A DNA stretch of 32,000 nt from Phycisphaera mikurensis NBRC 102666 (GCF_000284115.1 NC_017080.1:60001-92000); one strand, 5' to 3'. Shown: positions 1 to 4,330, counted from the stretch's first letter. Numbers and translations are program-made. The notes: generated from the sequence alone by a model not told the origin.

Positions 1-325
1 AGACCGAACGCTTCATCGCCGCCCGCACCCGCTCCGCCTCCCGCGTGCCGTGCCACGCCACGAGCGTGTGCAAGTGCGACGCCGAGCTGCCCACCGCGAT
101 GAGGAGCAGCCGCTGGCGGGCCGCCGCCTCTTGCAGCCAACCGATGCACGACCGCTGCAACGCGGGCGTGCATACCACCTCCGCCCTCTTCATCAAGGCC
201 CGGTGATGCCGAGCCCGAGCCTCGTTCGGCGGCCGGGTCACCCGCCACCGACGGTCGTGATGCCCCGCCTCCCGGTCGACCATCCAGGACCCGTACGTGT
301 GGAGCGTGATGAGAAACAGCGGCAC
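1..325 (-). CDS. HUH (Y1) IS200/IS605-type transposase-like protein, RAYT-like; 3' end runs off the window
   Basis: Not in the ORF track because it is open to the window edge. Minus-strand translation from GTG (325-323) reads VPLFLITLHTYGSWMVDREAGHHDRRWRV...CIGWLQEAAARQRLLLIAVGSSASHLHTLVAWHGTREAERVRAAMKRSV. The N-terminal strand (ITLHTYGSW) and the His-hydrophobic-His motif (SHLHTLV) follow the Y1 transposase layout. Third codon positions are G/C-rich in this frame. The antisense ORF 50..544 is Arg/Pro-rich and is treated as an artefact. Confidence 0.5.
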   Translation of the reverse strand, partial: MPLFLITLHTYGSWMVDREAGHHDRRWRVTRPPNEARARHHRALMKRAEVVCTPALQRSCIGWLQEAAARQRLLLIAVGSSASHLHTLVAWHGTREAERVRAAMKRSV

Positions 326-426
326 AGCGACAAACCTACCAAAGACCGGTCATTCGCGAGCGGCCGCGGTTCCCCTCTCATACACCGCCCTCACACGCAA
401 GCCGAAGAAACCGCCGCAGCCACCCC

Positions 427-745
427 GGCCGCGGTAGCTGCGTGGCGACGCCACGCTGTCCGACTCCCCATCCAGCTCCCTCGCGCACAAGGCAGACAGA
501 GCGGCGTCGCCGCTCCGCTCTCGAAGCCACCCTGGCCGCGCTAGCTGCGTGGCGACGCCACGCTGTCCGAGCCGCCGATCCAGCTCCCTCGCGCACAAGC
601 AGACAGAGCGGCGTCGCCGCTCAGCTCTCGGAGCCAGCCTGGCCGCGGTAGCTGCGTGGCGACGCCACGCTGTCCGACTCCCCATCCAGCCCCCTCGCGC
701 ACAAGGCAGACAGAGCGGCGTCGCCGCTCAGCTCTCGGTCGTCAG
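427..745. repeat. Tandem array of 3 copies of a 107-bp unit; each unit holds two inverted 17-nt palindromes (REPIN-like doublet)
   Basis: Units start at 427, 534 and 641, a period of exactly 107. Palindrome A, GCGTGGCGACGCCACGC, lies at 440-456, 547-563 and 654-670, and is preceded by GTAG (434-437), CTAG (541-544) and GTAG (648-651). Palindrome B, GAGCGGCGTCGCCGCTC, lies at 499-515, 606-622 and 713-729. The sequence between the palindromes is also conserved. Confidence 0.92.
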
Positions 746-779: not shown

Positions 780-989
780 TCAGCCGAACCTCGCGCTGAG
801 CCCGAAGAAGCCCGTGTGGTTCTTGGCCCGGACCCGCCGAGCGGTCGCGTCCTCCGCCACCCGGAGCGTCCGCTCTTCCGCTTCTCGAACCAGCCGCGCG
901 TTGACCTCCTTCGCGGTCTCCGGCGTGGCCTTGGAGACGCCGTCTTCTGCCCCACCGGACGGATCAGGCTGGTTGTTCTTCGCGTTCAT
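780..989 (-). CDS. Small hydrophilic hypothetical protein (69 aa)
   Basis: Internal ATG (989-987) of ORF 780..1058 gives MNAKNNQPDPSGGAEDGVSKATPETAKEVNARLVREAEERTLRVAEDATARRVRAKNHTGFFGLSARFG. Third-position GC is high throughout. It overlaps the upstream gene end (964) by 26 nt. No family was recognised. Confidence 0.45.
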   Translation of the reverse strand: MNAKNNQPDPSGGAEDGVSKATPETAKEVNARLVREAEERTLRVAEDATARRVRAKNHTGFFGLSARFG

Positions 990-1734
990 GGCGTGTCTCT
1001 TCGACCGAAAGAGTAGCCGGGGCGACCGCCTGCGCCCCTCCCTGCGACACGATGGCAAGCAGGATCCCCGCGACCCCCAGAACCAGCGCGTACACCATCG
1101 CTCCCCCGCTCGCTCTGGTCTTCGCGAGCAGCTCGTCGTTGCGTGCCTGAAGGTTGAGGAAAGCGGCCGACACCGCCTCGTACGACAGCTTCAGAGAGGT
1201 CAGCTCGTCTTCCGTGTCGATCCGCAGCAGCTCCACCGGGAGGCGGAGGTGACCGCTTGCGCTGTTGACGGCTCCATCGTCCCCGGCGGCCGGCGGCTGC
1301 GGCCCGCACGATTCCGCGATCATCCGGCGGAGCGGCGGGTCTTGCCGCGGCCGCCAGAGGAACAAGACGCGCAACCGGCACCGCATCGTGCCGCACCAGG
1401 CCCAGCACCGCCGCGGCCACCGCTTCGGGAACGCGCCAAAGACCAGCTTCGCGAAGGCGAGCCCCGCCGCGACCAGCGAGAGCGTCAGAAGGACCACCGC
1501 CCCGAAGAAGGCGGGCCCGCCGATCCTCGGCAGCAGCGTCACGGCTGCCGTGAAGACCGCACCGGTCGCCGCCACCAGGAGCCCGACGCTGAGCTGGAGC
1601 TCCCGCTGGATCAACCGCGCCCGCTCCTCCTCTGCGGCCCAAGCGAAGCGGGCGTGCTCCAGCAGCACCGCCCCGGCCTTCAGCTGCACACCTTCGTCTT
1701 GCTGAGACTGCAGCAGGAACCCCGAAGAAGCCAT
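964..1734 (-). CDS. Hypothetical 3-TM membrane protein (256 aa)
   Basis: ORF 964..1734 is protein-like with high GC3, for example gcG gtG gtC ctT ctG acG ctC for AVVLLTL. There is an amphipathic N-terminal helix. A TM hairpin follows (VGLLVAATGAVFTAAVTLL / AFFGAVVLLTLSLVAAGLAFAKLVF), then a roughly 110-aa soluble segment and a C-terminal TM (AMVYALVLGVAGILLAIV). The competing ORFs 814..2067(+) and 986..1903(-) are Arg/Pro-rich off-frame artefacts. Confidence 0.7.
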   Translation of the reverse strand: MASSGFLLQSQQDEGVQLKAGAVLLEHARFAWAAEEERARLIQRELQLSVGLLVAATGAVFTAAVTLLPRIGGPAFFGAVVLLTLSLVAAGLAFAKLVFGAFPKRWPRRCWAWCGTMRCRLRVLFLWRPRQDPPLRRMIAESCGPQPPAAGDDGAVNSASGHLRLPVELLRIDTEDELTSLKLSYEAVSAAFLNLQARNDELLAKTRASGGAMVYALVLGVAGILLAIVSQGGAQAVAPATLSVEETRHEREEQPA

Positions 1735-1825
1735 GATTCAACGGTACAGGACCCCCCTGAGCTCCACCCGGACGCCGACCCTCGAGAAGCCCATCAAGAC
1801 GCGGAAGACGCCCGCCCCACAGCCG

Positions 1826-1910
1826 CGAGAGCGGCGTGGCGACACCACGCCGCCCCACCCCCGATTCGGCCCACCTCCGCACAAGCAGACAGAGCGGCGT
1901 CACCGCTCGG
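1826..1910. repeat. Fourth, degenerate copy of the hairpin doublet seen at 427-745 (same orientation)
   Basis: GCGTGGCGACaCCACGC lies at 1834-1850 and GAGCGGCGTCaCCGCTC at 1892-1908, with 58-nt spacing versus 59 in the array. The shared segment cgcacaag(g)cagacagagcggcgtc is present. Both palindromes carry a G-to-A change but keep 6-bp stems. No GTAG is seen 5' of palindrome A. Confidence 0.8.
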
Positions 1911-2117
1911 TTTCCTCAGTCAGCCCTCACGGAGGGGCTTGTTCGCAGGCACCACAGCCGTGCCCGAGTCCTCGGACCGCGTCGCCGGCGTCGAACACGA
2001 TCACCGCGGACATCATGAGGTGAACCCCCTTGAAATCTGCTCCAAGTCCTTTGATGCTCGATCGTAGAGTGTTCGACTTCCATCTTTCCCGCCACTCGCT
2101 CTCTTGCACGCCGCATG

Positions 2118-3374
2118 TCACGCGGCTCCGGATCCACTGGCAGCCGCCTGGTCGATCCTCATCGCATGCAGAAGCTTCTCGTCATGATGGAGTGGCGCCG
2201 CGCGTTTGAGAGCAATCTGAAGGAGCAGAACCCAGACAAGAACACCAAGCAGCGATTGCAGCGGACCCGCGACAATCCTCCCTGGCAGCCAGAGCGTGAT
2301 GCCCATCGCGATCCAGGGCATCCAGCAACGCAGGAGGCTCATCGAGGCTGGTCTTGTTCCAATCGCCTGCAGCAGCAGCAGCTGCAAGAGAAACGTCAGG
2401 AGAAGATTGTCGTATCCGCGGTGGTAGAAGCTGATCCGGGCGATCACACCAGCGATAGCGAAGAGCAAGAGCGGGGAAGCCGATCGATACCACCAGAGTA
2501 GCCAGCAGCCGAACAGCAAGCCGATCGCGGCGACGCCGTACGTCGCCCAAGGCTCCGGCAATTCGAGCCACGAGCGTGAAGCCTTAATCACACCTCCGGC
2601 CCGGTGAGTATAACTCGCGAGGTGGCTCGAAGCACCGACCTGCGATTCCCACGGTGCAACGCCAGTTAGTAGCCAATGCAATGCTCCCGCCCCCATCACC
2701 AAGGTGCAGGCAGTCGCGAAACCGACCCACCAGCTTCTTCGGCATAAGAGCACGAGCAGGAACGGTGCCGCCAGCGTGGGCTTCACCATTGCGAAGCCAA
2801 TGCAGATTCCTGCGATAGCGGCTTTCTGGCGGTGCAGCAAGATCATCGAAGCGACAAGCGCCCCCATCACCACCACCCCGTAGTTGGCCACCGCAAGCGT
2901 AGCGGGGTAGCTCACCATACCAAAGACAGACGCGAAGCCGAGGCAGCGCACCCCCCGGGGCCCGGCCCGAGTCAGCTTCGCTGCCCATAGGAGCACGAGC
3001 ACCCACGCTGCCAGCGACAACGCCATGAACCACCGATCCGCCACAACGACGTCCGGTGGCCAGTGGAGGGGCACGGCCAGCCCGTAGGCGAACGGAGGAT
3101 ACTCGCCGATCGGCCATGCTCGCTGGGGCAACCGAAGAGCTTCGAAAAAGCGAATCCCCTCTGTCTCGAGAAGGCCCATTGCGAATTCGTCATCGCGGTT
3201 TGCCACCGCTTGGTGCAACAAATTCGGATCGATCCCACGCAGCACGTAGTGCACCTGCTGCCATCGCAACGCGGCATCGCCACCTTGCCCTCGTTCCCAG
3301 CGCTGCGACGCCACCGTGGTGTAGGTCACACCGAGGAGCAGCAAGCAGACGGTGAAGAATCGGCTAACTTTCAT
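2118..3374 (-). CDS. GT-C fold glycosyltransferase, GT87/DUF2029-like (paralog 1 of 3)
   Basis: A 418-aa polytopic membrane protein. The central motif GFAMVKPTLAAPFLLVLLCRR resembles the (V/L)KPQL...RWR motifs of the two other DUF2029-like genes in this window. It lies in the lowest-GC part of the window. Confidence 0.75.
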   Translation of the reverse strand: MKVSRFFTVCLLLLGVTYTTVASQRWERGQGGDAALRWQQVHYVLRGIDPNLLHQAVANRDDEFAMGLLETEGIRFFEALRLPQRAWPIGEYPPFAYGLAVPLHWPPDVVVADRWFMALSLAAWVLVLLWAAKLTRAGPRGVRCLGFASVFGMVSYPATLAVANYGVVVMGALVASMILLHRQKAAIAGICIGFAMVKPTLAAPFLLVLLCRRSWWVGFATACTLVMGAGALHWLLTGVAPWESQVGASSHLASYTHRAGGVIKASRSWLELPEPWATYGVAAIGLLFGCWLLWWYRSASPLLLFAIAGVIARISFYHRGYDNLLLTFLLQLLLLQAIGTRPASMSLLRCWMPWIAMGITLWLPGRIVAGPLQSLLGVLVWVLLLQIALKRAAPLHHDEKLLHAMRIDQAAASGSGAA

Positions 3375-3798
3375 CCCGGGCCGCTATGACTCGACGGTTC
3401 GAACGCCGGTCGCTGCCGCTTCTCTCGGATCCAAGCTTCATCAGGCGTACTCCCATCGCTTCGGTGATCGCCTTCGAAGCGTCATCCAAGGCTGCGCCCC
3501 GAAAGCTACGATAGCTAGAAATCTTCTGGGGTGTTTCCGACCTTGCGGGTACCCCAGAATGACCGGTTGACACCTGACAAAGCTCATGAAAGGATGATCG
3601 GGACTCTGAGTTCGCCACGGTGAGGGACAAGAGCGGGAGCTGGACACCGATTTCTCATGAGCGTTGTCAGCCGGTGCGTGACCGGAGGAAACATCGCACC
3701 GGCAGATCGGACGCTTGGGCCGGTAGCCGAGGGGGCTGCGGGCGGAAGGGAAGGCACACCCGCTCTTTGCACACTGGCACGGCTCAGATCTTCGCTTG

Positions 3799-4330
3799 CT
3801 ATAAACAACTCCGCGGGCGATCTTTGCGCAGCTTTCTATCGCCGGGCGCATGCTGTCGGACTGCGCTGGCAGCGACCGGATCTTCCTTCGCGTGGTTCCG
3901 CCGCCACGCGGTCTCGGCGCCGACTCCTGTGCAGCGCCATCGACGCTTCCAGGCGTGCGCGGATGACGCCGCCACAGTGCGATCCATCTCGCACGGCAGA
4001 GCCATGTTGTCCTTCTTGGCCGCCTCCGTCTCGAGGGCGTCGGCGTGCGTCTGGAGCTTGCGGGAGGTCCCGACCCGCCGCTCGATCCACCCGCCAGCTT
4101 GCTAAATCTTGCAGGGAGCCTGGGTTCTGGCTGCTGAACTTCGGCCAGGCGAGCCGAGGCGGATGACGGACTCCGTGGAGGCCACGAAGGAACGGATCGT
4201 CTGCGACACCGAGTTGGAGTCGCCGCGGACAGCGGCGGGAGCTTTGGTCTGCACTTGGACCGACACCTCCTGGGTGTAGCGGCTGCTGGGCGACAGGCAC
4301 GCGAAGCCGGGTCGTGAGGAGCTTGGGTTA
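3799..4330 (-). pseudogene. Decayed coding remnant: one minus frame with coding-like GC3 interrupted by an in-frame TAG (4102-4104), probably with further frameshifts
   Basis: The frame reads ...SPSSRYTQEVSVQVQTKAPAAVRGDSNSVSQTIRSFVASTESVIRLGSPG...KI*QAGGWIERRVGTSRKLQTHADALETEAAKKDNMA... In the stretch counted, about 44 of 48 third positions are G/C against about 27 of 48 first positions, which is the pattern of genuine coding. There is no convincing start codon and no recognisable family. A coiled-coil-like segment is present (LQTHADALETEAAKK). Confidence 0.3.

Follow-up and report, generated by a model that had tools for sequence, protein, structure and literature searches.

Next to a repeat array in Phycisphaera mikurensis NBRC 102666, we identified a locus that is very probably a REPtron, in which a divergent RAYT-like HUH/Y1 gene lies between tandem copies of its cognate repeat. 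The gene, present in a single copy with these flanks, is predicted to encode a divergent HUH/Y1 single-stranded DNA (ssDNA) endonuclease/transposase with a TnpA-REP-like fold. The repeat is a 107-bp unit comprising two inverted hairpins of subtypes A and B with TAGCT and GAGCT feet. This kind of system is already well described; new are the divergent branch and a candidate enzyme for the 107-bp family.

Organization of the locus

The genome comprises 3.88 Mb with 73% G+C, distributed over a chromosome and an 81-kb second contig. The window, meaning the whole stretch of 32,000 nucleotides that was analyzed, corresponds to C1:60001-92000 (GCF_000284115.1, NC_017080.1). The following features were assigned, with positions counted in the window unless prefixed by C1.

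1..325, minus strand: first 108 codons of the RAYT-like HUH/Y1 gene (ORF list, genome translation, GC3, alignment, structure model); protein motifs inside the window are LITLHTYGSW and the HUH motif SHLH (His83, His85), and outside the window Tyr147 and His151 in YLPDHP
326..415, no strand: gap of 90 bp that separates the start of the gene from repeat unit 1
416..738, plus strand: three-unit 107-bp array (Tandem Repeats Finder, repeat finder, nhmmer; C1:60416-60729)
440..456 (unit 1), 547-563 and 654-670, plus strand: hairpin A, GCGTGGCGACGCCACGC (pattern scan)
499..515 (unit 1), 606-622 and 713-729, plus strand: hairpin B, GAGCGGCGTCGCCGCTC (pattern scan)
1822..1908, plus strand: solitary decayed unit of the 107-bp family (repeat finder, nhmmer, pattern scans)

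The ORF at 2..325 on the minus strand, which encodes SHLH and has a GTG start at 325, is open at the window edge. The complete gene (C1:59723-60325, minus strand) consists of 200 codons plus TGA with a GTG start, its remainder lying upstream of the window, and GC3 in the gene frame is 0.86. The public gene call P0001 is 151 aa long and begins at residue 50 of the frame supported by relatives; missing from it are 49 N-terminal residues, the conserved first strand among them. This truncation may be one reason why HMM-based surveys missed the gene. The gene promoter is presumed to lie within 326..415, where a promoter scan recognized no sigma-70-like site.

The same repeat occurs on both gene flanks and in the same orientation, so that the gene is flanked by cognate REPs in the manner of a REPtron. 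Three units (C1:60416-60729) start 91 bp before the start codon, and a further 1.5 units are located at C1:59538-59692, outside the window and ~30 bp past the stop codon. With ~18 repeat loci in 3.8 Mb, we estimate the probability that both ends of a gene fall by chance within <100 bp of a unit at about 1e-6.

The decayed unit at 1822-1908 sits 1.1 kb beyond the three-unit array, is oriented as the array and bears one stem-breaking substitution in each of its two hairpins. Two ORFs of 92 aa and 256 aa without a Pfam match (780-1734, minus strand) lie between the array and the decayed unit; this 1.1-kb segment is, therefore, bracketed by same-orientation units of the family. At 1950-4000, the G+C content is 0.58-0.64 versus 0.73 for the genome, and this low-G+C stretch, which may be acquired DNA, contains a GT87-family glycosyltransferase gene (2118-3374, minus strand).

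Structure of the repeat unit

Each unit is a REPIN-like inverted doublet followed by a linker, with the order TAGCT foot, hairpin A, ~42-nt loop, hairpin B and AGCTC foot. The linker of ~21 nt is near-palindromic (CTCGnAGCCAGCCTGGCCGCGn). A preliminary description of this DNA had reported three units with an exact period of 107 bp, every one of them containing a pair of perfect 17-nt palindromes. Tandem Repeats Finder (period 107, 3.0 copies and 92% matches at 418-738) and the pattern positions agree with this account, with spacings of exactly 107 in both the A and the B series. For comparison, 0.00-0.02 matches are expected for each of the two patterns in dinucleotide shuffles of the window.

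Hairpin B is an inverted counterpart of A that differs from it by two compensatory changes in the stem. As the same description had noted, the flanked hairpin A (435-460, TAGCTGCGTGGCGACGCCACGCTGTC) and the reverse complement of the flanked hairpin B (602-627, GAGCTGAGCGGCGACGCCGCTCTGTC), read from the sequence, are identical at 21 of 26 positions, with the four internal differences resolving into two compensatory pairs (C-G replaced by A-T, and T-A by C-G). Genome-wide, 24 distinct hairpin variants were found, in which the same two pairs were changed on both sides and 96.4% of cells were paired. Because these variants reflect in effect one evolutionary split, A type versus B type, only two compensatory pairs were counted. 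None of the 152 hairpins had a stem intermediate between the two types; A and B are, thus, two discrete REP subtypes, comparable to y and z2 of Escherichia coli.

The feet preceding hairpin A in the three window units are GTAG, CTAG and GTAG, exactly as previously listed. The accompanying view of GTAG as the conserved REP foot did not hold for this family: genome-wide, the base preceding TAG is C in 24, G in 25, T in 6 and A in 4 cases. As this base is free, the conserved foot of hairpin A is TAGCT rather than GTAG or, more generally, TAGC[T/C]. GTAG-tagged REPs, a superfamily reportedly defined by Di Nocera in 2013, carry an unpaired GTAG at the end of the stem-loop; in the present repeat, nTAGCT is found on hairpin A and GAGCT on hairpin B.

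In agreement with a REPIN architecture, A and B are inverted, 42 nt apart and have outward-directed feet, and each A pairs with a neighbouring B in minimum-free-energy folds. The single-strand folding energy of the array did not stand out from that of shuffled sequence (z about -1.4). Perfect palindromes and compensatory pairs, therefore, carry the structural case instead.

Affiliation of the protein with the HUH/Y1 superfamily

Database searches with the protein itself yielded no direct assignment. Pfam and NCBIfam gave no match at E <= 10 for the full-length protein and nothing useful for the partial protein, in phmmer the protein matched no PDB sequence, and a six-frame Y1_Tnp scan reached only E 0.6. 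The lack of an HUH/Y1 HMM match for the full-length protein, which the preliminary description had named as refuting its proposal, was, thus, literally observed, while the assignment itself is supported by the alignment, by PF01797 matches of relatives, by profile comparison and by the fold.

Across 1.84 billion representative proteins, searched exhaustively with phmmer, 140 relatives were identified. When 64 of these were aligned, H83 and H85 of the [S/T]-H-u-H motif as well as Y147 proved invariant, and H151 (YLPxH), H8, W13 and D16 nearly so. His139 is likewise nearly invariant across the family and replaced by Lys in this protein. The HUH-to-Tyr spacing of 62 residues compares with medians of 58-67 for the published TnpA-Y1 classes (PMC6006769). 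PF01797 (Y1_Tnp) was touched by 36 of the 64 aligned relatives at E <= 1, with a best E of 1.3e-8, and IMG names one relative 'REP element-mobilizing transposase RayT'. In the PDB, the family profile scored best against TnpA of IS608 and ISDra2 (E 0.013) and, at E 0.077, against 4ER8, the TnpA-REP of E. coli; the HUH motifs align in these matches. When the family was compared by hhalign to the canonical RAYT of this genome (see below), only the HUH region aligned, with a probability of 38%.

An AlphaFold model built on the family alignment had a mean pLDDT of 91.8. In a Foldseek search of the PDB, the 30 best matches to this model were without exception IS200/IS605 TnpA or TnpA-REP, with a probability of 1.0 and target-normalised TM-scores of 0.55-0.68. 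The invariant HUH and Tyr residues, the Y1_Tnp matches of relatives, the profile and the fold together override the literal lack of an HMM match, and we assign the protein to the TnpA-Y1 superfamily as a divergent member whose candidate catalytic residues are intact. Judging from the Y+4 motif spacing, His151 would correspond to the third-ligand position and occupy the place of Asn119 in TnpA-REP and Gln131 in IS608.

Distribution and variation of the repeat family

The preliminary description had left open whether the REPIN family is dispersed and named confinement of the palindromes to this site as an argument against its proposal. The family is clearly dispersed, with 65 A-type and 87 B-type hairpins, 152 in total, at about 18 loci. 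With an nhmmer profile, about 85 units were recovered, all of them chromosomal and grouped in about 18 loci, about 16 of which have the repeat without the gene. Almost all copies are tandem, with arrays of 2-7 units at about 15 loci and ~3 of the ~18 loci solitary. Within arrays, spacers of about 42 and 31 nt alternate. Tandem two-subtype doublets, alternating linkers and variable copy number are the features of BIME-2-type arrays.

The arrays occupy intergenic gaps, often between convergent genes, a placement that is only approximate because the GC3-based gene caller is crude. Relative to replication, with an origin near 0-70 kb and a terminus near 2.06-2.2 Mb, 12 of 16 independent loci were co-oriented, a weak trend (one-sided p about 0.04). 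Exact-pattern scans of genome and metagenome collections detected no carrier of the hairpins among other genomes or metagenome contigs. REPs are usually genome-specific.

Full units were 93.7% identical within arrays versus 92.1% between arrays and represent mosaics common to several arrays. Across 59 units, ~85 of 110 alignment columns were >=90% invariant, including stretches outside the hairpins, and polymorphism was confined to ~24 columns that are near linkage equilibrium between arrays. Two deletion derivatives were also detected. An 85-bp form, in which part of A is lost, is present at 1.641 Mb (five copies) and 1.724 Mb, and the loci at 2.854 Mb (six copies) and 2.882 Mb share a 77-bp form from which A was deleted between two CCGCG repeats; both derivatives have been amplified in place as consecutive near-identical copies. 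Since the same derivatives occur at two loci and full units are mosaic between arrays, units appear to move between loci. For E. coli BIMEs, it was proposed that transposition or recombination creates diversity and that local amplification follows (PMC3333891). By analogy, the amplified derivatives and mosaics would fit this two-step picture, a fit that falls short of proof. To define the mobile unit, we also sought linkage between variable blocks, with the expectation that cutting at the hairpins would give linkage inside the loop or inside the linker. Nearly all pairs of blocks were unlinked, and the linkage test, therefore, cannot discriminate between candidate mobile units.

Tandem Repeats Finder further revealed no fewer than four families of tandem inverted-hairpin arrays in this one genome, comprising a 103-bp family (GGGTGCCACGCC...), the 107-bp family, a 139-bp family and one of about 200 bp. 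The 103-bp family matches the REP given for the species in Table S1 of Quentin 2018. A CRISPR-like array is additionally located at C1:768790-771259. Amplification of tandem doublets seems to be a habit of this genome and, with unrelated repeat families also being tandem, array growth may be a property of the host rather than the work of the enzyme.

Homologs and their own palindromes

A paralog at C1:2185511-2186010 (41% identity) carries a different, ~120-bp self-complementary element on both sides, of which a few further copies occur in the genome. In metagenomes, the two nearest homologs show 54% and 45% identity, and each has its own inverted hairpin doublet on both sides. Strong homologs are low-copy among 40 related genomes. 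Matching palindromes on both sides of the gene were present at nine of ten homolog loci examined, and the same flanked layout was observed at six further paralog loci. Homologs flanked by their own palindrome are found in at least nine other genomes, represented by two metagenome contigs and by seven related genomes designated G002, G008, G010, G015, G018, G024 and G038. Two of these, G015 and G024, contain three paralogs each that are 38-53% identical, again with a separate palindrome for each. In the present genome, G015 and G024, the genes, thus, share the REPtron traits of low copy number and one REP family per paralog. Such joint change of an enzyme and its repeat family is a hallmark of REP/RAYT systems (PMC6006769).

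The extent of dispersal varies. The flanking palindrome is present in 36 copies in G002, with compensatory stem variants, and in 13 copies in G038, while the palindrome of one G015 paralog is confined to its own flanks. Feet in the relatives are mostly TAGC[C/T], with [A/G/T]TAGC[C/T], AAAGC[C/T] or CAGCC seen. The G002 repeat, [A/G]TAGCTGCG...CGCAGTCC, has its foot and tail in common with hairpin A.

Other Y1 genes are also present in the genome. A canonical RAYT (C1:1041102-1041815; DHIH ... YLHMNPVRHGLV) has a classical GTAG-footed inverted doublet just downstream (CCGTAGGGCAGGTCGGCGACCTGCC ... GGCAGGTCGCCGACCTGCCCTACG). The NHWH ... YVERNA type (class 2.1 / TIRYT-like) is represented by two further Y1 genes, located at C1:3005649-3006344 and C1:3573575-3574372, and both score above the Pfam cut-off. 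The gene at C1:3005649-3006344 is flanked by repeated GAAAAGGTGACAGCCACCGATT motifs, and the same motifs form a 77-bp array at 2.801 Mb.

Proposed mechanism and alternative explanations

The fold, the profile matches, the two-sided flanking and the dispersed repeat support the earlier suggestion that the HUH gene and the array form a RAYT/REPIN unit. By analogy to E. coli TnpA-REP and IS608 TnpA, the protein would bind a hairpin with its 5' foot in ssDNA and cut nearby by means of Tyr147, with the metal held by His83, His85 and probably His151. Subsequent strand rejoining would move or exchange doublets in trans between intergenic sites. Slippage or unequal exchange might subsequently lengthen or shorten the arrays in place, while the gene itself would stay put without transposing. 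Several points count against the REPtron reading, namely the lack of a direct sequence match, YLPDHP in place of YIxxNP, Lys139, the other tandem families and the unremarkable folding energy.

A further-reaching interpretation, which we regard as doubtful, is that selection keeps the whole 107-bp unit, beyond its hairpins, and that the arrays are domesticated chromosome or RNA elements kept uniform by a dedicated TnpA-Y1 subclass, so far unclassified, that exchanges short tracts. In this view, His would serve the subclass as third metal ligand, a place taken by Asn or Gln in other classes. A role as domesticated chromosome or RNA element has reportedly been proposed for E. coli REP325 and BIME-2.

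Alternatively, host processes alone, such as replication slippage, unequal crossing-over and gene conversion, might have made and maintained the arrays, with the gene encoding a domesticated hairpin-binding protein or being a relic. Consistent with this are the in-place amplification of deletion derivatives as near-identical consecutive copies, the presence in this genome of at least four unrelated repeat families that are also tandem, and the published view that RAYTs resemble housekeeping genes more than transposases (PMC6006769). We nevertheless consider this explanation improbable, as all candidate catalytic residues are intact, the same derivative is found at two loci, and genes between their own palindromes recur in many genera with a palindrome that differs each time. 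The recurring layout would be hard to sustain without an ongoing enzyme-substrate relation.

Far less plausible is an autonomous insertion sequence of the IS200/IS605 type, in which the gene and the flanking hairpins move together. The Y1 transposase fold and the subterminal hairpins on both sides would be expected for such an element, but the gene has one copy, the nearest paralog is only 41% identical and has different flanks, the flanks here are the same element in direct orientation rather than a left end differing from a right end, and the repeat is found without the gene at about 16 loci. Finally, almost no credence can be given to a CRISPR-like array, structured-RNA array or repeat-protein gene lying coincidentally beside the gene: its regularly spaced palindromes and invariant stretches outside the hairpins are outweighed by 'spacers' that are conserved instead of unique, by periods (107, 85 and 77 bp) that are not multiples of 3 and, therefore, keep no reading frame, and by an Rfam scan that returned noise only, which led us to reject the CRISPR, protein-repeat and known-RNA readings; moreover, a T-tract of the terminator type is missing after the A and B hairpins (the array stretch has only two terminator-like sites, both at the array edge at 414-442 on the minus strand), and the chance of a gene lying between two units is estimated at about 1e-6.

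Taken as a REPtron, the locus links the 107-bp repeat family to a candidate enzyme. HMM-based RAYT surveys miss the whole clade, with Pfam blind to the protein and the public call being without the first 49 residues, and this clade is common among the Phycisphaerae genomes sampled. Having one palindrome per paralog and a common TAGC foot, its members provide a handy natural series on how Y1 enzymes read hairpins. In other respects, the locus is an ordinary example of a well-described type of system.

Comparison with known systems

The REPtron of E. coli (TnpA-REP = RayT/YafM, PDB 4ER8; PMC3333891, PMC6006769) resembles the present locus in several respects. Both feature a low-copy Y1 HUH gene with tandem inverted doublets on both sides, two REP subtypes with complementary stem changes, a TAG in the foot 5' of the hairpin, and variable-copy tandem arrays of the same doublets at many intergenic loci. 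Three y/z2 REPINs are present in the E. coli REPtron (PMC6006769), and BIME-2 elements occur in multiple tandem copies with two REP subtypes and two alternating linkers (PMC3333891). The preliminary description had considered tandem doublets beside the transposase gene unusual, which proved wrong, because the E. coli REPtron with its y/z2 BIME-2 arrays is built alike; other tandem families also exist in this genome. Differences concern both partners. The protein shares 9% identity with TnpA-REP in a structural alignment, with no recognisable sequence similarity, has YLPDHP instead of YIHYNP as its Tyr motif and, unlike TnpA-REP, possesses an additional beta-hairpin at its N terminus and a C-terminal tail of 35 residues. 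Its hairpins are perfect 8-bp palindromes without the mismatch required by TnpA-REP, the foot is nTAGCT rather than GTAG, and the repeat family is small (~150 hairpins) and almost entirely in arrays.

The REPIN-RAYT systems of Pseudomonas fluorescens SBW25 (PMC3116915) likewise have their own REPIN family for each RAYT paralog and species-specific repeats, with doublets whose feet point outward and that can fold as a single long hairpin. In Pseudomonas, hundreds of REPIN copies are scattered, mostly as lone doublets, whereas only ~3 of ~18 loci are solitary here. IS200/IS605 TnpA proteins (IS608, ISDra2) are the best structural and profile match, with HUH and single-Tyr chemistry and hairpin substrates. 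In contrast to these elements, the present system is not multi-copy, lacks distinct left and right ends and tnpB, and has hairpins that are spread without the gene.

Among published TnpA-Y1 classes, class 3 (Quentin 2018), known from Planctomycetes, Acidobacteria and Proteobacteria, agrees with the present system in phylum, in an extended conserved N-terminal region and in REPtron-like layout, and its length of about 165-180 aa is similar to that of our protein. The class 3 motifs are NHVH, W[TA] and YV[VI]xEQ as opposed to [ST]HxH, WFS and YLPxH here, and the class 3 repeats are weak, have a CnGA foot (for example, CCGAGCCGCGACCGTAAGGGAGCGGA) and are nearly the same across phyla, whereas those studied here are strong and genome-specific with a TAGC foot. 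On the basis of these differing motifs and repeat types, we rejected membership in class 3. Class 2 RAYTs are characterized by YIxxNP and WQ/WE motifs (PMC6006769, Table 1), in place of which the family consensus has YLPxHxG and WFSRGG. Table S1 of Quentin 2018 (PMC6006769) contains six entries for the species, of which those examined belong to the BAM05346.1 REPtron (class 2.2) with GGGTGCCACGCC repeats; a search of that table for the 107-bp repeat sequence did not find it, and a search of the available literature returned no paper linking this species with REP sequences. Judged by its motifs, the protein family appears to be an unclassified, divergent branch that lies outside every published TnpA-Y1 class.
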